Origin: Rhizaria sp. SCN 62-66
Taxonomy: Eukaryota
Assembly (NCBI GenBank): GCA_001724265.1
Contig: MEDY01000064.1
Location: forward strand, 124,001 to 181,757
Length of the DNA stretch: 57,757 bases
Direction of reading: 5' to 3'
In this document: positions 16,036-35,941 of the stretch, piece after piece
Numbering within the stretch: position 1 is the first letter of the stretch
Layout of the letters: every line of letters begins with the position of its first letter
Notes under the pieces: generated by a model
What the model was told of the DNA's origin: nothing
Databases searched by the model: none
The model's input: only the letters and a program-made list of their open reading frames with translations
Position numbers and translations under genes: made by a program

Positions 16036-18593
16036 ATGAGCAGTGCCGGCAAGAAGCGCAAGGTCGCCGCCAAGGCCTCTAAGGCGGCCACCAAGAAGCC
16101 CACCCAGACGGATTCCCCTGTCTCTTCCGACGACGAAGCCGACCGTCGCACCCGCGACGAGCACGCCGCTGCGCGCGAGTGGCTGTCCACGCTGGCCCCC
16201 ACCGACGTGCTGTCGAAGGACCTGTTCGACGCCGACCGCATCGCAGCGCTGCGCTCTGAGTTCGCCAACAAGCTCCCGTTCCCGCACTGCACGATCGAGA
16301 ACTTTGTCGACTCGCAGTTTCTTGCCGCGATGCTGGATGAGCTCAAGAACCTCGACTACGCCTCGAAGAACAACGACCTGTACAACTTCTCCCAGTCCGA
16401 GGAGGACCTTAAGTGCGTGACCTTCCCGCTCGTGACCCACTTCCGCGAGCTGCTCTACTCCCCGGCGACCGTGGCGGCGCTGTCGCAGATCTCGGGCATC
16501 CCGCTCTACGGCCTTGACAGTCCGTCGCAGCCGGACTTCTTCGCCGCCGTGTACTCAGACAAGTCCCGCCTCCTGTGCCACGACGACGAGCTCGAGGGCC
16601 GTCGCATCGCCTTCATCGTGTACCTCGCCGAGGAGGGCTGGGCCGACGCCGACGGCGGGCAGCTCGACCTGTTTAACACCGACGCCGCGACGGGTCAGCC
16701 CGCGGACATCGCCGTGTCGTACGTGCCCAAGTGGGGCTCGTTCACATTCTTCGAGGTCTCACCCAAGAGCTACCACCAGGTACGTCGCAAGTCAAATATT
16801 TCTATTTTTATAACGCACTTATCAAACTACATCGTATGATGTTTATATTTCTGCTTCAACGCTATTTTTGCTGATGTAGCTTCCAACTGTCGTACCTTGT
16901 TTCTTGCTTTGCTATCTTGATCGCATGTAGGTGCGTGAGGTTCTGTCCAAGAACAAGCTGCGCGTCTCTATGGGCGGCTGGTTCCACGGTCCCCCCATCA
17001 CTCGCAAGGCGCCCGTTATCGAGCCCGTGGCCGCCGCGTTCCCGCCGGTCCCCGCGCCCGTCGGCGCGGCGGCCGGCGGCGTGCTGCCCGGCTGGGTTAA
17101 CAAGCAGTACACGGCCGCCAAGATCGTGCCCCAGATCAAGGCCGCGTTCAGCGAGGACTCGTCGCTGGAGCTCCACAACTTCATCTCCGACGCTCTTTAC
17201 AAGGAGATTCTCGGTGAGATTGTTGCTCTGGAGAAGACCGCGTTCCCCAATGTCGCCGCCAATGGCACTGCTGCCGACGCCAAGACTCCTGTGCCTGCTG
17301 CTGAGGCTGAGGCTGAAGCTAACAACGACGACGACGACGGGAACGACGACGAAAGCGACGAAGAGGACGAGGAGGACGAGGGTGAGACCCCCGAGTCCGC
17401 CAAAACTGCAACGACCGCCGCCAAGAAGGGCGCCAAGGGCAAGGCCAAGGGCAAGGCCGGGACCAAATCCAAGGGGGCCAAGGCCGGCAAGGCGGGCAAG
17501 GGCGTCAAGGCCAAGGCTGCCGCCGCCAAGAAGGCCTCTGCGACCGCTGGTGCCGGCGCCAGCGAGCCGCTAGAGCCCGCGGTGCTGCCTGCGCTGATGA
17601 CCTACCCGGTCCCCGGTCTGGGCCTGTCGCTCGCCGGACCCGCCAACTTCCGCTGCTTCTATGAGCAAGTGTCGCCCGGCCAGGCGTTCGCGTTCCCGCA
17701 GACGCACCCGGAGGCGGCCGGCGCAGGGCCGCAGCAGGGCGCCGTGTTCAGCGGCCCGTCGGTGACGCCGAAGCTCGACGCGCTCGTCGAGGAGCTTAAG
17801 GGGGAGAAGTTCGCGAAGGTACGTTTTCAATCCGATTTATATTTGAAAAGGTTTTGCAATGCTGCAAATGGTGTGTGGCAATTTCGTGTGTATTGTACAA
17901 CTGTGTGTACATTCCTCATATTTTTTTGGCTTTTTTATGTCTGCACGTTTTAGTTCATCGAGACCGTGACCGGGATGACGGTGAGCTCCGTGACGCCCCC
18001 CTCGCGCCGGCTCTTTCGCCGCGGTTGCTACACCCTGGCCCACGACCACGAGCTTGAGACGCTGGAGGAAGCACTCGACGTCACCGTCACCTTTATGGTG
18101 CCCAAGGCGGCGCTCAAGTGGGATGAGTCCGACGGCGGCTCCATTCACTACCTCCAGGCCGGCGCTGACGAGGAGCTGCTCACCGTCATGCCCGTGCCCA
18201 ACGCTGTCACAATGGTCTACCGGTACGTAAACGACGGCATCGCGAATATTGCTGAATTAGCACGTTCACAACTGACGATGAACCAAGAAAAAGTTAAATG
18301 TTTTTATTCTAATTGTGACTACATTGTCTCACATATCGGTTCTGTGTTTTGTCTTTATTTGTGTGTTTTCTTTCGTCTCTGCGTTGTCCGATGGTGTTGT
18401 CTCGATGCTGTTTAGTGCCGGTGCGAGTACAAACGATGACGGCACTCGCGAAGGCGGCGTGATGCAGTTCACCCGCTATCTTTCGCACACCGCGCCTGGG
18501 TTTGTGTTCCAGGTCAAGATGACCTACCGCGGCCTTGAGGGTGACGACGATGATGACGCTGAGGCAGGAGCGGAGGATGGTGCTGATGAGTGA
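16036..18593 (+). CDS. OGFOD1: Prolyl 3-hydroxylase OGFOD1/Tpa1/Ofd1, ~692 aa; exons 16036-16779, 16931-17818, 17954-18222, 18416-18593
   Basis: PFPH, KNNDLYNFSQS, LLCHDDELEGRRIAFIVYL (HxD), FFEVSPKSYHQVREV, RVSMGGWFH, RLFRRGCYTL. Three GTACGT...TAG introns keep frame. Stop is TGA. Confidence 0.92.
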
Positions 18594-19127
18594 ATGAGCT
18601 GGTGAACTACACAAAAGCAAGCGGGCCAGATAGGCTTCATATATTGGTATAAACACACTACGATACAAATGTGTACAATATATTTCCACGACAATACCAA
18701 CATGTATCAACGATCTTATGAACTACTTGACAGGTCGCACTCGCGATCAATACTTGTAATTCCGATCAGTCATATTAATACAGTTGCACACAACACCTGA
18801 ATTAAGTCATTTTTAAGCAAGTGGTGAGAACTAAATGTAATTAATGTAATTAATTTTATTATATTCATGGATTTATTTCATTAATTAATGACGGCGAAGG
18901 CTCAAAATATTTTATGTTTAGTAAGAATCCATCGATCTGCTATTTTACGCGCGTGGGGGGGAACTCACAATAAAAAAGTATTACTCCCCATGTGGCCACG
19001 CAACCAGCGATCAAAAATAACAGCGAGATGTCATTCCACCAAAAGCAAACAAGTCCAATACGTAAGCACTTCAACACTAAATGTGTTCAATCTTGAGCTG
19101 CTAGGTCATCCTCATACTGTTGTCACA

Positions 19128-21578
19128 TCACAGCAAATCAAAGAAGTAGTCGAGCCCCTGCCCACAATCCCATACGGCCACTCCAGCAGCGTCGGCCTTC
19201 TGTGCAGCCTTGACCCTAGCCGCGACCGAGTGCAGCGACGGGTACCACAGGTACTCACTCTCCCCCGTCAGCGTATACACCGTCGTCGCAGCTGACTTCA
19301 AGTTGCCGGCCTCAGTCCGCGTCCCCGTCTCTGCCTCAGATCCTGCTGTGGTGAACAACGGCCGCTGGTAGTAGTGCTCGCCCGACGTGGCGTGGTACTT
19401 AAACCCTCCGCCAATAAGCCCCGCCATAGCGGCGCGCTCCTTCGCACCCGAGGGCACCTTCTTCAAGTCGCCCGACGCAACAGCATCACCCGTCTTGACT
19501 TCGCCCCTCCCCTTCCCCTTGCTCTTGTTCTTGGCAGCCGCGGCAGCGACCTTGGCGGCCTCAGCCGCAGTGACCACAATGGCGGTGCCAGCCTTAACCG
19601 CGGCCACTGCGGCGGCGTCCTGCTGCAGTGTGGCGACAAGGTCCCTGCCCAACACTGGCTGCGACTGCGCGCCGTGGGTGTATCGCATGCCGTAGAAGTT
19701 GAGGCCGGCAAGGGACTTGCTGCGGACCAGGCCCGTGGCGTCGGCCTCGGAGAGGGCCGTAAGAGACTGGGAAAACCATGACAGCGGCGACGCGGGCCAC
19801 CCGTGCACGCGCAAGCGAGACTAGAGGTGATGGAGAAAATGCCACAAACCAGAAAAAGGGAAATTAGAGTAAGTAAAGGAGATGAGAGTTCAAATTTGAT
19901 TGTGAACATTGTCAAAATATTGTTTTAGTCGCCAAATACTGTACATATGATATCATTTAGCACGAAAAAATAACGATGAATTCAATTGCTACTAGACTCA
20001 AGCCGCACATTGCGTTTGTGTGCATACCTCGACCTGGTCCCTGGGCAGCTGCTGACTCAGCAGTTCCCGCACGTTAGACACCACCATAGGGTCCGTAACG
20101 CCGTCCTTAGGTGCAAAATCGTACGTCATCAGCGAAAACCTGTCGACAACATCGGCCAGCACAGCCGCGTCAACGGCCGCAAACACGGGCGGCGGCGGCT
20201 TCTGGCCGCCGTTGTTCGCGGTCTTCGCGTTCGGGCTCGGGGCAATGTAACGGCGATAGGTGGGGTTATTGGGGGCCGCTGGGGTGAGCTTCTTCGCGTC
20301 GCTCTTGCCCCCCGTGGCGCTGGCGCTCTTAGCGTTCGCTGTCGTGATGGGCGTGGGCGCGGAAGGACGCACGACCAGCACGATCGACTTGGCGTGGCTC
20401 GCCGCGTCGCTGCCACTCTCGCCCTAGCTGCTCAGCGCGTTAGCGCGCGCGATATCCTCGCCGAGCGACTTGACAGAGTCGGCGACCTGGCGCACGAGTA
20501 GGTTGAGCACGTGGCGCGGCGACATCAGGTCCGCCTTGGTGAGGTCCTTCGCGCCCACTGTCAAATCCGCGGTGCTCTGCGCGTACAGACCGGGCGTGTG
20601 CTGGGGGTGATCGGGGTACTCGCCGGCAACGGGCCAAAAGTACGTCCACTCCAGAGTTAAGCCATCGTAGTCGTACTTCATCACCAAGTCGGTCAGCAAC
20701 TGGACGATCTGCGCGCGCACGGCGGGCTCGGAGAAGAGCCGCGTCGACAGCTCGTCGCTGGGCTCGGCCAGCACGCGCGGCAGCACGCGGGGGCGGTGCG
20801 CGGGTCGCGGGAAGTTAGGCCGCGGCTTGCCTTCCGCCCCGGATCCGTCATCAGCGGTTCCCTCGCTCATGCGCTTGATGTTGTTGCCTTCACCAGCGCC
20901 GTCGACGCCAGCTCCCGTGAACGCATTCGCGTTGAACCACGCGACGTACGTGCCGATGTCGCGGCCCGTAATGGCGGAGAGCCAGGTGACGTCGACGTCG
21001 TGCTCGCCGTCGAGGTACGCCTCGACGGTGGCGCCCGTCGCCGCCGCGGCCGAGCCCGAGGGAGCGGGGCGGAACTTAAGGCTGTGCCAAACCGGGGACA
21101 CGGACGGGAACCGGTGGGGCGCCTGCTGCACGAGATCGTACCCGTGGCGGTTCCACGGCGTCACGTAGCACAGGCTCTCCGTTGCGGGCAGCGAGAGACC
21201 CCCGCTCGCAGCCCCTGTGTCGACCGCACTGCTGCTGCTGTTGTTGCTGACAGGCAGGAGAGAGCTGGCCAGCGCGTGGTGCTCGAGCACACTCGCCGCG
21301 GTGGGGGACACGGTCACCAAGCCGCGGGCCTGCACCGGCAGCAAGGGGTCAGCGCTGGCGACCGTGGTTGCAGTCGCAGCGGAGGCCTTGATAGCGCTGG
21401 AGAGAGAAACGATCGCCGTGGGCTGCGAGGCAAGGAACATCGAAGCAACGGCGGCGACAACGAGAGCGATAACGGCGACGATAACGTAGATCGAAGTCTT
21501 TCCACGAGCAGGGGGTAAAGCCGCTGCCTTGGTGGACGCGGGAACAGGACCGCGTGGGGCGGCGGGAGGAGCAGCCAT
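19128..21578 (-). CDS. CHID1: Chitinase domain-containing protein 1 (inactive GH18), ~747 aa; exons 21578-20028 and 19820-19128; internal in-frame TAG at 20426-20424
   Basis: N-terminal TM/signal anchor, then YVTPWNRHGYD, VSPVW and YDGLTLEW before the TAG. FSLMTYDF, GLNFYG, LWYPSLHSVAARV and GVAVWDCGQGLDYFFDLL follow it. Intron 20027-19821 is GTATGC...CTAG. Stop is TGA. Confidence 0.88.
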
Positions 21579-22872
21579 GGGTTTAGCCACGTTTTGTCAA
21601 AGACAAGGGAGTCGCGATTGCGGCTGGAAAAGATTGTGGAAAAGTAGATAGAACGAGATGATAAAACCGTATGTAACGAGACTAACAAGTGTACACATAT
21701 TTCATCGAAATTTATATGTGCTCGTGAAATTATGCTATCTGGGAGTGAATTTGTGGTGTAGTGCACATCTTTTTCATAAGGGGCAGTCAAAGAGGTGCAG
21801 GACGAACAAGTGAAATCATATCTGCCAGGTGCGTATTGGCTAGACGTGCGCTTATAATATTAATATTTGAGTATCACATATAAATTGTTTATTGGTATAT
21901 TATACTATGTTTCCACAGCAAAAAGATATCATTAACTAGTATATCCAGTGAGTTAATCATGAAACCAGTGCGTGGCGGCATGAAAACCAGCTATCACACA
22001 GGACCATGATGACCCTTAACGTGGTTCAGCAGACTTGATCGCACAAATTCGAGTCAAACAGTGCATTATGCGAGACTAGGTACAAGTTTTATATGACCCT
22101 TAGTCAATCTCATAAGCACCAAGTATGACGAGCTGACTGTCACTCAAGATGCGAATTGTAACGATCAAGTTTTAGACCAGGTGATGCAGCAAGAATACGC
22201 GCAGAACCGAGTGTATAACAGATGCTATATAGAACAACCTACACTGTTAAAGACTAGGCGTGCGCGCTGCCTACACGCAAGACTATGTTGCAAGAGTGTT
22301 GCATGCGACAGTACTGACTTGAAGTGATCCTCTGCGGCTTTCCATGTCACGCACTAGCAAAGCCGTGACTGGAGGAGCTATTACGCACTTTTAATGATAA
22401 ATTATATGTGTTAAATGGCATATCGCGTCTTTGTTTCAATACGAAGTCGTCTTACGATGCGTGTGTCAAATTTGTATAGAAGCACGGTCACTTCGGGTCT
22501 GCAGCTACCGTTTGTGGTGGAAATCGAGTCGTTCGGTAAGCTTGAATTGTGATGTTCATATCCGAGCCAACTCTTCGTCAAATGGTGCATGGAGTTGGAT
22601 CATGAAACAAACTTGGGTAAAATCTTTGAATCGAATGTCACATTGCTCTATGGCTTATATCATCTGTACTACTCATCCTGCGTTCAAGGTCAATGCAACG
22701 GGTCTCCCATCTCCGACCAATCCTTCACCTAAACTGACGACTAGCTGGACAAAACTGGAGTCCATCTCGACTCTCCGAGTTGATGCTGAATTAACGCGAA
22801 ATATTAAGCCCTGCTATTTCTGTTTTATTTCACGAAATGACTATCTTTACTGTGTACTCTTGTCATTTGTAG

Positions 22873-24332
22873 ATGGAGCCCCAGCACTTCGAGACAGATG
22901 ACGCTGCCGCTTCTGGCGCCACTGCCGGCCCCAAATTCTCCTGGCTCGCCACGTCCCGGCGCTACCATACCGCTTTTGCCACCGTCGGCGCTTTTCCTCT
23001 GCTCGTTACAATTGTGACAGGCTGTGCGTATCGCTTCCTGCGCGCCGTGCTCAACGTCGACAAAGAGCGCATCGGCTGGCTGCTCGGCCTGCACACTTTC
23101 TCCGTCGCCGGCATCGGCGCCTTCTACCCGCTCCTCGTCGCCTTCCTTGTCTTTGGGCTTGCGCTCTCCTCCGCGCTCCCGCTCCTGCGCCACCTCCATG
23201 CGACGTACAACAAGTTAGGCCGCGCCCCGACCTCTGCGATGGCGCGCGCCACCGCCGCCGCGCCGTGGTCCGCCGCCACTGCGCACCGGGCCCTCGGTTA
23301 CGTCTCGCTGCCGCCGCTGCTGCTCTTCGCTGCCACAGGCGCACTGTACACGATGGAGAAGCACTGGGGCGCTGCGGACAAGGCGTACATGAAGACTATG
23401 ATGCGCTGGCATCAGGTGCGTAAACAACGTCACATCAACTGAACTGATGTATCAGCAGGATACCTGTTTTTTTCCGTAATCCTATGTTTCAATTATATTG
23501 CGGTTTTATGTTATTATTGGTATTTCTTGTTTTAAACGTATCCCTTATATCCTAAACATTGCGTACTCACTTACTCAAACTTGTGTGACCATTGTTATGC
23601 ATTACGATCAACTACACCTGCACCTGCAGCTCTCGTTCGCGATGCCTGCAGTTGTCTGGACCACGCTGTCCGCGATTCCCCTTGCCCTTCTTGTCGGATT
23701 TGGTCTTGTTCTGCTTGCGCGTGTGACTTTTAGCGCAATGCAGGCCCGCGGCATCCACATCGTGTAAGTCAAATTACCTGAAAACCAAATGCCTATCGTC
23801 AATATCTTCTCGTATATGTTGTGTGCAGAAGAACATCGCATTGAAAAAATGTTCTTGGAATGTTTTAATTTTGAGAACTCTGTATACCACGTTGTGCTCA
23901 TGAAAAAACCTCGTACATGTTACTTGTTTCTGGCGCAATTGCTTGCCTCATATGCTACACAGGTTCAACCTGCGCTCCATTGACGACCCCCTCCAGTCGC
24001 GCGTGGGCCCTCCCCCGGCCTCCACTGGTGCCTTCCCCAACCCCGCCAGCGGGGGTCGTGGTGGTCTAACTTCCTCCCCGACCCGCATCGCGCCCAGCTC
24101 GGCCCGCAACGGCGCGGCCGCGGTGGCGCCGACCCCGTCCGCCGTCGCGGGCGCCGCGGGGACCGGTTTCGCGCTGGCGATGAGTCCGCGCGAGGCGGCG
24201 GCCGCGGCGGCACGCGAGGCCCAGATCCGGTACGCGCCGGTGCATCACGCGGCCGCGGGGGCGGACTGCGCGCTTTCGCTCGACGACAACGACGACGACT
24301 CGGCGTAGTACGAGTCGGACACCACAGCGTGA
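22873..24332 (+). CDS. Membrane protein with two PepSY-TM-like repeats; exons 22873-23415, 23630-23763, 23963-24332 (ends at 24308 if TAG is a stop)
   Basis: Duplicated unit RRYH..FPLLVTIVTG.Y..LLGLH / AHRALG..PPLLLFAATG.Y..MMRWH. Introns GTGCGT..GCAG (phase 0) and GTAAGT..ACAG (phase 2) join three ORF-track ORFs in frame. Confidence 0.7.
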
Positions 24333-25759: not shown

Positions 25760-28629
25760 TCACCGCGGTGAGTCAGCAAACACACTGCTCCCCGTCGTCG
25801 AGTCATCGTCGCCAATACCCCGGCCCCCGTGTCCGTGCGCCCCACGGCCGTAGCCGCCGCCAAGAGCGACGCCACTGCCGCCGTTGCTGGAGCCCCTGTT
25901 GCCGCTGCTGTTCGACTTGGCGGCGTCAGCCTCCGCGGCGACGGCGGCCCTCTGCAGCGCCGCGGGCCGCCCCGCCGCCCGCGCGCGCGCGCTGAGGCCG
26001 ACGCCCAGCTGGTCGGCCAGCGCCCGCGCGCGGCGCTCCTCGGCCTCGTCGGCGGCCTCGGCAGCCGTCTGCGCCAATGCGCGCCCGCGGGCGTCGGCCT
26101 CGGCCAGCGCGGCCACACTGTGGTCGAACGCCGAGTGAAAGCCGCCGGCAAGACCGTGGGCTGCGCCGTCGTGATGTTCGTCGCCGTGCGCGTCATCAAA
26201 GTCGTAGTTGTGGAGCACGAGCTCGCCTTCGTAGTGCGGGTCGTATCTAAGCGTCTACATCAAACCGGTAGAATCACTAGCGGCGCTGCACGTTGCCGCA
26301 GCAGTCGTACTGTTGTTCATCTACGGGAACGCAAACACGTTGTTCGAATTGCCCCGGCCCGCCTACAGCGCGCGGCCGTGCGCGCCCGCGCCGCCGCTGC
26401 CGAGGTCGTCGATCTCAGCGTCAGCGTTGGGCGGCGGCGGCAGCGGGTCAAAGCGCGGCGAGCCCAGCGGCGGCGCGGGGCGCGGGGTCGAGGCCGGGGT
26501 ACGCACGCCGCCCGCGCTGAGGTTGCCCGAGCCGGCCGTCGCGACGGCGCTGCCCACCATCGCCGTCGCCGCGGGCGTGTCGTGCGCGGGTGCGGGCAGC
26601 GCGGGGAGGTCGCCCGAGTGCGAGAGCGACAGAGAGTGCGTGTACGCCAGCGTGGGGGACATGGCGCCGGCGCTGTTAGGGCCAGACAGGGGCGGCGACA
26701 GCGGGAGAGAGCCGGAGCCAGACGCAGACGCAGAGGCAGACGCGGATGCCGAGGCCGCGGCGGGCACTGACGACGACACCGACAACGCCAGGGCAGTCGC
26801 GGCCGCGTTGCCGCTTCCGCCGGCGGTCTTAGGGGCGGCGCCCGAGAGCGACTGCTGGGCTGCATAGGCGCTCGCGCCCGCGGTGCTGACGCCATGGGGC
26901 GCCGCGTTTGCAGAGATAGTGCTGTTGTGGGACTGCGAGTGCGAGAGAGCGTTGGCGCCAGACACAAACGACACGCCGCCGCCGCCGGGGTTGCCTCGAC
27001 CGGCGGTGACTTTGCCGTCGCCACCGAGATCGTCGTGGCCGGCCGCACCGGTCTCGGCATCGGCCGCGGGCGGCAGCGCGAGGGCGCGCGTATAAGCGTA
27101 CGCGATGCGGGTGCGGCGCATTACCACGGCCACGATCGTCTGTCAGCGAACAAGAACAAACAGCAAAGAAAAAAAATATGGAAATTCGTAAAAAGTGTCA
27201 GAACGATTGTGATAAAACAAGAAACGAGAACATCTTTCAAAAACTACTCCTTCATCGTAGGATCATGCGTTGAGCAGCGCGCAGTGCGTACCTCGGCGAA
27301 GACTGTGCTGATGACGACTACGGCGAGCAGGCGCACGTGCTGCACCGCCGCGTCCAGCACCTCGGGCGCGGGGTGGTCCGGCGCGAAGTGCTTCGTCACG
27401 TTGTCGATGATCGCCGTCTCGGAGAGGTTCAGCGCGAACGCGGCCGTGAGCGCGCCCGCGATGGCGAGCATGGCGTTGGCGGCGGAGAAGGCTCTGAGCA
27501 CCTCGCTGTGGTTGAGGCAGAGTCCGGTGTAGCCCGTGGCGGCGGAGAGGATCGTCGCAACCGTGAGCGCGAGCGTGGCGACGTGCACGCGCGGGGACGC
27601 GAAGGCCGTTTCGGGCAGCGACGCTGTGGCGAAGACCAGCGCGAGCGCGCAGAAGAGCGTGACAGTGACGAGGACGAGCAGGATCAGCACGCGGCGCCGC
27701 GCCGTCGCGAAGGGCGGCGCGTGCGGTATCGAGTAGTCGTCCTGAATTAACAGAATTTAACACAAATAGAATGTAATATGTAAGCCTTGCGTAGAAAGTG
27801 TAGTTTAAGTTCTTGATACTGGATGAAAAACAGCTCGTTTAGAAAGCAACATATTGTTTTGTCGTTAAAATGAAATGAAACGTACGTCGCTGGCGTCATA
27901 TCCGGCGGCGTTGCGCCGCGACCCGCTTGCGTTGGTGCCGCTCGCGCTCGCGCCATTGCCGCCGCCGTTGCCGCCACTGTGCTGCGCGTCGTACTGGTGC
28001 ATGAGGCGCTGCACGGCGCGCTTGCGGTGCGCGCGTTGCTCCCTGCGCTCGGCCTCGACCTGTTGCCGCGACTGCTGCAGCTCGACCGCGCTCTTGGCCA
28101 GGTTCGCGTCCTGCGTGTACCGCTGCAGCGCCTCCTGCAGCGCGTGTGTGCGCTTCGTGAGCGCGCGCGTCTCGGCGGCACGCGCTCGGTCTAGCGCCGC
28201 CTGCTGCTGCAGCCGCTGCTGCAGCCGGTGGTAGGCCGGGGAAGCCGGGTTCAGCCCCGCCGCGTCGCCGTCGGTGGCCCTCGCCACTGCGCCAGAGGCC
28301 GCGGAGCCGGCGGAGGGACTGACGCTGGCGTTGCTCGTGCTGTGCGAGGCGTCGTCGCCGGCCGCCGCGGCAGAGGCCGTGGCGGCGGCGGCAGCGGCGG
28401 CGGCGGCGGCAAGCGCGGCGGGGTAGGCAGTGGCTTCGTCCGAGTCGGAGGAGTAGGCCCAAACCGAGGTCGGCGTCGGCAGCTTGGCCGCGGCGGCGAT
28501 CAGCGCGGCCTCGGACTTGCTATGCGCCATCAGATGCTGCGCCCGACCGCTTCGCGAGCTTCCAGCGCCGGAGCCTGGGCCTGGGGGCGCGCCACCGCCG
28601 GCAAAGTGGGCCCGGGAAGGGCGCGGCAT
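25760..28629 (-). CDS. Four-TM (tetraspanin-like topology) hypothetical protein, ~857 aa; exons 28629-27886, 27741-27292, 27139-25760; three internal in-frame TAGs
   Basis: Phase-0 introns GTACGT..TCAG and GTACGC..ACAG. Coiled-coil N-terminus and four hydrophobic helices. ORFs 26363..27133 and 25760..26218 share a frame, bridged by TAGs at 26365-63, 26323-21 and 26257-55. Stop is TGA. Confidence 0.68.
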
Positions 28630-33300: not shown

Positions 33301-35523
33301 ACTGGTGCTGCTGTTGGAGTTGGTGTGCGCTCGGTTGTTGGTCGTGTTGCTGCTGCTCATGTTGTTGTTGCTGCAACGAAAGCGCAATCGACGACAAAAG
33401 CGACGGGAATCCAAGGTTAACATCACGATTGACCCCACTGGGACTGCTAGTGTTCCTGTTGTTAGCGTCCGTGTCCGAGGGGCTGTTCGTGCAATTGATG
33501 TTCCCGTGACTGTTACTGTTTTGTGACAAACTGAAGTGCGACGGCTGCGGGTGGCCGTGAGCAGTGCCAGCATTCGCACCATCAGTTGCATCAGCGTAGC
33601 GCTCGCTCAGCTCCGTGTGACTGTGGGACGCTGCGGAATGACTGTGAGCAGAGGTGAAGTGACTGTGCGCAGCCGAGTTTGTCATGTGACTGTGAGCAGG
33701 AGAGGTCGAGGCGCACATGGACGGCGACATCACCTCTTGCCCGTTGCTGTTATTATTGTTGTTGTTGTTGTTGTTGTTGTTGTCATCATAGTTGTTGTTA
33801 CCATGCTCAGCATCGTGACTATGATTGCGGTGACTGTGTGCCTCGGCGTCGTGACTGCGGTGCGCGCTACGGGAGTGACTGTGGGCGCTGTTGACGCTAC
33901 GCTGGCCATGGCGCGTGTGACCGTGGTTGCGGTGGCTATGGGGACGACGGTCGCGGGGATCACCAGCAACGACAACGCGCTCGTCTCCGTCGCCATGACT
34001 GTGCCTGTGCCTGTGGCCGTGGCTGTTGTTGGTCGAGCTTGTAGTCACGGGAATGAGCGGAGGAGACGGGAAGTCCAGCGTCTCAAGTGTGAACTCACAT
34101 GGCAAGGCGCCAAAGTGCACTGTGTCTCCAGGGCGCAGCTCTGAGAAAGGTCAGTGAAACGAAGCAAATCAACAAAGTTTGGAGGATGAGCGAGGAGCCA
34201 AAGGGGGGGGAAATATGGTCTTGAGCTAAGTGGATTAATAGTCACGATATATGCATGTCTTAAAAAATAAAACAAAATAATGATATACATGACTGAGTTT
34301 TTTCTACAATATTGTGACTAGAGTTTAAAACATTTTGCATAAACCACAAATATTCAAGTTCCTGAGAAACCGGATCTTAAACCCAGTTTCCAGAAGGAAA
34401 AAACCTTCTTTCATGGAAGTTTAGGCGTACCATAATAGGTCATGGGCTCAATCCGGACCCTGTTGATATACGTCCCGTGTTGCGACACAAGATCAAAGAG
34501 AAACACGCGCTCCTTTCCGGGCAAACTGGCCGCGAGCGCGGGCGTCTCGTCCAGCTGCGCGGAGCTGTCACCGCTCGCCTCGGTCTGGTCAGTGTCGGGG
34601 TCTGCGCCTGGCTGATCTCTCTTGCGGCCCGCCTTGCTCTGCTCGCTCTCCCCGTCACCGTCCTCCTACGCACCCCGCGTGGTAGCGCCGGGAGCGCCGC
34701 CACGCGCGTGTGGGCCTCTGTTATCCCCGCCGGAGCCGGAGTTATTGCCGAGGCTTGTCAGACTGGCCTGGCTAGTATTGCGCCGAATGCCCGACACGGC
34801 GTCTCCGGCGCTCACCGTCACCGCGACGGGCGCCTCCGCGTCCGGCCCACTCTCCTGCAGCTGCGGCGGCAGTGTTTGCGCCAGCGCGGTGAAGTGCGGC
34901 GAGGACGGGGACGCGAATTGGATGATGGCGTGCTGGCGTGACAGCGAGGGGTGCGAGAACGTGAGCACGCTCGACGGCAGCCGGCCGATTGTGAGTGTGG
35001 CGAGGCCAAAGGACGTCAAATCAAGCGGCGGAAAAGGTGCGCCGTTGAGAAACGTCGAGAGGTAGAACGGGGTGCGCGGCGGAGCGCCCCAGTCAGGCGG
35101 GACGTAGGTCTTAAGCGAGCCGCCGCCTGGGTTTCCAGTAGCAGTCCCGACGCTGGGGCCGAAGGGTGGCGGTACGGCGGAGTTTGCTGTGTCTGCAGAG
35201 CTCGTTGTAACGTGCATTTGACGCTGTGTGGAAGTATCGGAAGCAGTGGCGCCGGTGTGGGCAGAAAATGGCGGGGAGTGGCGGCCGGTGAAGGGCGAGA
35301 AGAAGGGCCCGGAATTGGTCGGGGAACGGCGTAAGGAGAGAGACGAAGCCGGGAGAAACGAGATGGGACGGCGAACCAGGGGTGAAGCTGGAATGATAAC
35401 AACGCCCTGGTGTTTTCGTGGAGATGATCCAATGACAGTCGTTGCTGGAATCTTCCTAGGACTTGGTGCGGGTGGTGGGGGCATCGAAGTTCGCCCTGTT
35501 GGGGGCGTCGTGGAGGGCCTCAT
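30305..35523 (-). CDS. FHA-domain protein with a very long low-complexity C-terminus, ~1642 aa; exons 35523-34431 and 34140-30305; internal in-frame TAG at 34668-34666
   Basis: YVPPDWG..TIGRLP..HPSLSRQHAIIQF lies before the TAG. VFLFDLVSQHGTYINRVRIEPMTYY|ELRPGDTVHFG lies after it, across phase-1 intron 34430-34141 (GTACGC..CTGAC..CTCAG). Stop is TAA. Confidence 0.85.
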
Positions 35524-35941
35524 AACCCTCCGGTACTAAAAACACAGATATGGCACATATAGCGGGGCATAGAATGAGCGATCAATTTGACATAATCGAG
35601 GTGATCTGAAATAGAACCGTCGCTAAATGAATGCAATGAAGATGGACGGAAGTAAACGTGACTAAATCTGATGTGTATTCAGCACCCCATCCCCAACGCT
35701 CACGTCGGGCTTGGGGGTGGGGGGGCGAGAGAGGAGGCATGAGCTCGGTCAACGGGCGAACAGTACGGAGGAGAAAGAATCTCTGACCTACTGCACTCCA
35801 ACGCCGCCACCTCGCTCCTTCTCCCCACTCTCTCATTATCTCAAAAAACAACAACAACACAACCACCATCAACGAGTTGTCTCATTTTCCCTTCCTTTCC
35901 CTCTCCATGTTTGACCGTAGCTGGAACACTGGGTGAGTGAC

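Follow-up and report, generated by a model that had tools for sequence, protein, structure and literature searches.

We found evidence that the genetic code of Rhizaria sp. SCN 62-66, an uncultured wastewater protist with at least 11 dynein heavy-chain loci and a mitochondrial IF2 gene, has probably changed genome-wide at one stop codon: UAG would be a rare sense codon, and UAA and UGA would still be stops. The analysis concerns a stretch of 57,757 nucleotides (the window; contig MEDY01000064.1 of assembly GCA_001724265.1, positions 124,001 to 181,757), in which a gene for a CHID1-like protein contains an in-frame TAG. In this organism TAG most likely stands for an amino acid, since many rare in-frame TAGs were detected, including one in the gene for the release factor eRF1, and we infer that translation proceeds through UAG. 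A change of code is preferred over damage because of the codons used at gene ends, the TAG in the only eRF1 gene found, and the identity of independent sequencing runs. The TAG in the CHID1-like gene most likely reflects this genome-wide cause and not a gene-specific readthrough, an explanation that was absent from an earlier account of the window made from its letters (the sequence-only reading).

The CHID1-like gene and its in-frame TAG

CHID1 is a catalytically degenerate member of the GH18 family. The gene in the window consists of two exons with 747 codons in total (Table 1). Its N-terminal part matches human CHID1 (3BXW) with an E value of 6e-10 and exon 2 does so with an E value of 1.6e-12, homology to the human protein being present at both gene ends. 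As in human CHID1/SI-CLP, the catalytic motif is degenerate (DGLTLE in this gene), and the YVTPWN region, FSLMTYD, GLNFYG and the C-terminal motif all align. The two differ in length, 747 codons versus 393, because of low-complexity insertions in the protist gene, one of which contains the in-frame TAG. Pfam GH18 scores were below the cut-off, an Atlas search gave only weak GH18 leads, and a single-sequence AlphaFold model was unusable (pLDDT 35).

On either side of the TAG the frame runs without a stop, for 390 codons upstream and 141 codons downstream. P0003, the only CHID1 relative found (42% identical), aligns on both sides of the TAG and lacks exactly 21 residues around it, with the preceding helix and the following strand kept. 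The sequence-only reading had proposed that the barrel continues through the TAG, and the resumption of the P0003 alignment on both sides supports this; on these alignments the GH18-like barrel appears to be continuous. The peptide it quoted, the TAG at 20426-20424 on the minus strand and a candidate intron of 63 nt (CAG/GTCGCC...TAG) are all as it described. Its further claim that the flanking helix and strand match consecutive CHID1 elements holds as continuity relative to P0003 but not relative to human CHID1, whose alignment with an E value of 6e-10 covers residues 57-203 and 470-491 only and does not extend over the helix and strand on either side of the TAG. Under the proposed code, CHID1 would be made as a full chitinase-like protein of 747 residues, with the UAG residue in a lineage-specific loop.

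Table 1. Features of the CHID1-like gene, candidate introns at its TAG and other in-frame TAGs in the window (positions of the window).
Feature	Position	Strand	Remarks
CHID1 exon 1	20028..21578	-	517 codons; hydrophobic N-terminal segment, GH18-like barrel, YVTPWN and FSLMTYD motifs
CHID1 intron	19821..20027	-	207 nt, phase 0, GT-AG, GC 0.35; ordinary; predicted from sequence
CHID1 exon 2	19128..19820	-	230 codons; conserved C-terminal motif, then TGA
In-frame TAG, codon 385 of CHID1	20424..20426	-	would be read as an amino acid
Lineage-specific 21-codon insertion around the TAG	20391..20453	-	19/21 third positions G/C; coding-like score
Candidate intron, 63 nt, of the sequence-only reading	20424..20486	-	disfavoured; GC 0.65, pyrimidine share 0.45
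Second candidate intron, 60 nt, GTCGCT...CAG	20410..20469	-	disfavoured; GC 0.68, pyrimidine share 0.25
In-frame TAG in an insertion splitting the FHA domain of a neighbouring gene	34666..34668 (gene 34414-35535)	-	
Three in-frame TAGs (26365, 26323, 26257) in one low-complexity ORF	26255..26365 (ORF 25772-27142)	-	no Pfam match
TAG, then 7 codons and a TGA	24306..24308	+	late sense codon or terminal TAG

The TAG is real DNA, and an assembly or sequencing error is excluded. Four sequencing runs (X3, X4, X5 and X7) were compared over positions 17000-23000. A contig of run X3, which comes from another study, spans the TAG (19418-21207) with 0 differences, and long X3 pieces showed 0 differences across about 5.8 kb. 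Errors at the rate needed would differ between independent runs, and X3 had none. Run X4 yielded a contig at 20410-21212, also with 0 differences, in which the TAG lies at most 17 letters from the contig end; this run behaves as DNA since it spans an intron and intergenic DNA. The JGI record L002 is identical at 1981 of 1981 positions and may share its source with this assembly. None of the contigs of the poly(A) RNA run X5 or of run X7 covers the site. Runs of three studies (2015-2025) were near-identical across 6 kb of the same region. X4 also contained a divergent CHID1 contig with 8 differences at 20063-20112, downstream of the TAG, of which 6 are synonymous. Standard gene callers split TAG-bearing genes, and a read-through protein with E or Q at the TAG was found in 0 of 8 cases in the protein collection.

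Irrespective of the code elsewhere, a short GC-rich intron (63, 60, 51 or 72 nt) could remove the TAG from the CHID1 message. Several GT-AG pairs that keep the frame are available at the site, and two of five lone TAGs in kinase genes are intron acceptors. The sequence-only reading had set the 63-nt intron aside as GC-rich and as deleting conserved sequence. Both objections were borne out, with a GC content of 0.65 compared with 0.30-0.52 for the 12 introns that could be located within identified genes, and with the loss of residues that align to P0003. It had missed that splicing of the 63 nt yields exactly the segment length of P0003, that a 60-nt splice spares most of the helix, and that a branch-like CTAAC lies upstream of the TAG. 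We nevertheless regard such an intron as very unlikely. The candidates lie beyond the range of the 12 located introns in GC content (0.65-0.68) and in the pyrimidine share before the AG (0.25-0.45, reference introns 0.55-0.85), and 19 of the 21 codons of the insert end in G or C. Moreover, the TAGs in eRF1, UBE2J and two kinases lie in ungapped alignments and therefore cannot be introns. A larger reference set of 113 introns was discarded because it had been chosen for low GC, which makes the comparison circular.

The neighbouring genes at positions 10643-51089 of the window encode a mitochondrial IF2-like GTPase, an OGFOD1-like oxygenase, an MRT4/L10-like protein, a HOOK-like coiled coil and glucosidase I (GH63), and most of them contain long Ala-rich insertions.

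Stop codons inside genes and at gene ends

The genome measures 34.9 Mb, of which 1.0 Mb was surveyed for codons and gene ends, the survey of gene ends being heuristic. Within strict windows, 148,257 coding-frame codons included 28 TAG, 3 TAA and 2 TGA. The TAG frequency of about 0.19 per 1000 codons is similar to that of ATA (24). On inspection, the five internal TAA/TGA candidates resemble gene ends, intron-adjacent sites or wrong-frame calls. Two relaxed scans, both noisy, returned 44 TAG, 9 TAA and 19 TGA, and 65 TAG, 26 TAA and 66 TGA, respectively; the second scan added 26 TAG candidates, and the 16 of them that were compared with Pfam gave no match. We do not use the ratio of TAG to TAA and TGA as proof, since random nonsense changes would already be 73% TAG given the codon usage (P = 0.09 for at least 28 of 33).

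A TAG is spanned by a Pfam domain above the cut-off in each of eRF1, UBE2J, PLA2G12, two kinases and a ubiquitin copy, whereas 0 of 12 TAA/TGA control candidates are spanned in this way. In eRF1, UBE2J, a NEK-like kinase and a CaMK-like kinase the TAG lies ungapped inside conserved sequence. Lone TAGs occurred in 5 of 106 kinase matches, of which three are exonic and two are intron acceptors. Ten dynein genes contained no exonic TAG over 37,247 aligned positions, from which we conclude that TAG is a rare codon. The counts leave out the lone TAGs of kinases L087 and L088 and of dynein L178, as well as the remaining dynein TAGs, all of which lie in introns or serve as intron acceptors. TAG sites in PTEN-C2 and condensin had one weak alignment each and were left unscored. 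A retrotransposon-like stretch with several TAGs (L011:2029-8217, minus strand) is probably decayed and stands outside the domain evidence. UAG would be a very rare sense codon, so that just scattered genes, CHID1 among them, carry it.

Gene ends were marked by 48 TAA and 26 TGA; a smaller census gave 38 TAA, 23 TGA and 9 TAG. All 13 apparent TAG ends continue in frame, with a median of 141 open codons, although two do so for just 7 and 19 codons and could be true ends. The codon score downstream was +5.8 after TAG versus -5.9 and -5.8 after TAA and TGA, and the sequence following TAA and TGA ends is non-coding-like.

Some further loci were recorded. The 18S rRNA gene (L129:1501-5945, plus strand, G000:C706) is highly divergent, contains four group I introns and may stem from another cell. 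The first of these introns is long and has an apparent ORF with what we take to be a His-Cys-box-like motif. Ubiquitin (L130, L133, L134, L137) is likewise divergent, with monomers that begin MSMQ, and the assembly contains no polyubiquitin junction. An insertion at polyubiquitin monomer junctions is described for Rhizaria (PMC13746701); it is unreadable in this assembly because polyubiquitin is collapsed at contig ends. The TAG-bearing ubiquitin copy (L132:1-2100, plus strand, G000:C681) has the TAG at a Q position and is fused to a Peptidase_S74 chaperone domain. The stretch around its ORF is A+T-richer and mobile or virus-like, and the ubiquitin copy itself is host-like.

Release factor, tRNAs and the residue at UAG

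A single eRF1 locus was found (L083:1181-1827, minus strand, G000:C63), the other match being Pelota-like. Its in-frame TAG corresponds to human position 107 and is ungapped relative to solved eRF1 sequences. The ORF beginning after this TAG was present on four contigs (JGI, Logan, ENA and MetaClust) with 5 of 10 look-ups positive, and these sources may share reads. In a tree the query joins only P0007, an 86%-identical relative from which the TAG is absent. Compared with its homologues, the eRF1 carries the changes T32S, M34V, G57S, T58K and K130Q, at which 115-116 of 117 homologues agree on another residue. P0007 shares M34V and T58K and retains T32 and G57. The L69A change of the exLh type is absent. 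In human eRF1, T32S leaves the response to all three stops largely unaffected (PMC3632111), and because this change is nearly harmless there, no eRF1 change is singled out as causal. Under the proposed code, eRF1 would have lost recognition of UAG. The first intron of the gene has an unusual GTCCGT donor and a GC content of 0.52.

UAG could be decoded by a near-cognate tRNA, or by a tRNA-CUA that the assembly lacks. Of 506 tRNA candidates 63 were scored, and the 50 scored hits that were read included no tRNA-CUA. Three sequence patterns gave 0, 3 and 67 matches, none of them tRNA-like on inspection, and DNA searches for tRNA-CUA returned just 5 identical tRNA-Gln(CUG) and 8 identical tRNA-Glu(CUC). 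Low-threshold ARAGORN predictions were rejected as noise. The tRNA-Gln(CUG) carries a U28:A42 pair, which is said to promote readthrough of UAG (10.1101/2023.06.19.543857). In the tRNA-Trp(CCA) (L171:43-115, G000:C90), the D loop lacks GG and the anticodon stem has a mismatch, A31:C39, at its base.

To identify the amino acid, the columns aligned to the TAGs were compared. In eRF1 the column contains E in 104, D in 12 and V in 1 of 117 sequences, V being that of the closest relative P0007, and Q in 0 of 117. The UBE2J column contains D93, E17, S12, N12 and Q2 among 147. For the NEK-like kinase, the 89%-identical relative P0124 has E, human NEK1 has Q, and the column of 24 includes Q5, D4 and E3. 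The CaMK-like site is occupied by E8, A7, D5 and Q1 among 27 of the organism's own paralogues, and by Y or A in solved CaMKs. The ubiquitin copy in the mobile or virus-like element disagrees, as 7 of 7 ubiquitin-like paralogues of the organism have Q there. A residue classifier trained on 7,475 columns was applied to five aligned TAG sites and gave sums of 5.7 for E, 4.1 for D, 0.5 for Q, -12.7 for Y, -14 for L and -16 for W. Site likelihoods on a fixed tree gave a joint posterior of 0.97 for E and 0.02 for Q, a difference that shrinks once residue frequency is discounted, with Leu below 0.005 at each of 5 sites. The flanking composition of the 28 sites preferred Q over E by 5.6 log units, an earlier scoring of flank context having been undiscriminating. 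This preference arises from two polyQ sites, which a CAG-to-TAG mutation explains under either code.

Our initial guess of Gln from polyQ runs was downgraded by the eRF1, kinase and UBE2J columns, the classifier and the site likelihoods, and a UAG=Leu code was rejected since the sites do not fall in Leu columns (-14 log units). Leu, Trp and Tyr are excluded at the five aligned sites by these comparisons. Glu is somewhat favoured as the residue, Gln is clearly the less likely choice, and another or a mixed residue is improbable; these gradings rest on few sites, of which the ubiquitin site disagrees with Glu. That UAG means Glu while UAA is kept as a stop seems to us slightly short of an even prospect.

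Competing explanations and known genetic codes

Counting against a change of code are the lack of any tRNA-CUA among those found, the lack of exonic TAG in the dyneins, the weak excess of TAG, and the two possibly terminal TAGs. The main rival is a transitional, ambiguous code, because no tRNA-CUA was found and the tRNA-Gln(CUG) carries U28:A42. Here eRF1 would partly terminate at UAG and near-cognate tRNAs, such as tRNA-Gln(CUG) with its readthrough-promoting pair, would read through. The TAG of eRF1 would be a negative-feedback gate, and CHID1 would give rise to full-length and 384-residue products. Such a state would be in line with the extreme rarity of TAG and its occurrence at both E-type and Q-type sites. 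By the rate of 28 in 148,257, a gene of about 430 codons such as eRF1 contains a TAG by chance in about 8% of cases, which also speaks for it; a regulatory role of this TAG is putative. We consider the transitional code unlikely all the same, as TAG has essentially vanished from gene ends, which is expected if it no longer stops, and as the eRF1 TAG is not common to P0007. In addition, tRNA arrays interrupt the assembly, so that the tRNA may be missing from it, and the constrained sites lean towards Glu, which tRNA-Gln would not insert. Less likely again is an early reassignment of UAG to Glu, with UAA and UGA as stops, without a dedicated tRNA-CUA and with the UAG of eRF1 acting as a prfB-like feedback loop. 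Bacterial prfB is a case of release-factor self-regulation by readthrough. Self-regulation is also described for a readthrough circuit of plant eRF1 (PMC5397192). The protist gene resembles both in having a stop codon in or after the reading frame of a release factor, but differs in that the UAG is at codon ~107 of a cellular eRF1 and in a genome with scattered UAGs.

Ordinary nonsense mutations would turn CHID1 and the other genes into recent pseudogenes of a clonal lineage. The catalytically degenerate motif of CHID1, the 73% share of TAG among random nonsense changes and the near-identity of samples from three studies agree with this. It is highly improbable, since loss of eRF1 function is lethal and the TAG is in the sole eRF1 found, since the shortage of TAG at gene ends would be unexplained, and since CHID1 has no further lesion; the nature of the five TAA/TGA candidates argues in the same direction. 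Editing of the mRNA, either A-to-I to give UGG (Trp) or U-to-C to give CAG (Gln), would affect TAG selectively, and A-to-I editing of stops occurs in filamentous ascomycetes. Of all explanations this is the one we expect least, because Trp is among the worst-fitting residues and editing would not clear TAG from gene ends.

The preferred reading, a reassignment of UAG alone, has counterparts in other eukaryotes. UAG encodes Gln, with UAA and UGA as stops, in Iotanema spirale (PMC5304391) and in Hartmannula sinica, Trochilia petrani and Protocruzia tuzeti (PMC11687900). The Iotanema eRF1 is altered by T32G (PMC5304391, section 9) and thus, like the present one, at T32, and the protist shares with these codes the use of both UAA and UGA as ends. 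It differs from them in constrained sites that lean towards Glu, a mild T32S, very rare TAG, and a lineage in which a mitochondrial IF2 gene and no fewer than 11 dynein heavy-chain loci are present. UAG means Leu in the rhizarian exLh, with 384 UAGs in 71 genes (PMC5304391, section 6), and in three TARA phyllopharyngean ciliates (PMC11687900), which also retain UAA and UGA. Unlike in exLh, Leu is rejected here, UAG is far sparser (28 in 148,257 codons) and L69A is missing. Ser is assigned in Scotinosphaera (PMC11687900). Glu, the leading residue here, is encoded by UAG in Oligohymenophorea sp. PL0344, which has UAA=Lys and ten tRNA-Sup(CUA) genes (PMC10553269), and by UAR in Blastocrithidia (PMC12153298). 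In those two UAA is also a sense codon, whereas the protist uses it as its main stop and yielded no tRNA-CUA.

Few codes separate the meaning of UAG from that of UAA. In the published examples of a change at UAG alone that we found, the residue is Leu, Gln or Ser; the literature searched, mostly open-access main texts, yielded no code in which UAG means Glu and UAA is a stop. Glu, if true, would represent a new code table, and Gln would still represent an independent origin in a wastewater protist. Given that UAG is so rare and has already disappeared from gene ends, the genome appears to be at a stage just after codon loss, at which codon-capture and ambiguous-intermediate models may be tested against each other. 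With a close relative that has sense codons at two of the TAG sites and an eRF1 that differs at G57 and T32, the organism would form a natural pair for the study of UAG recognition.
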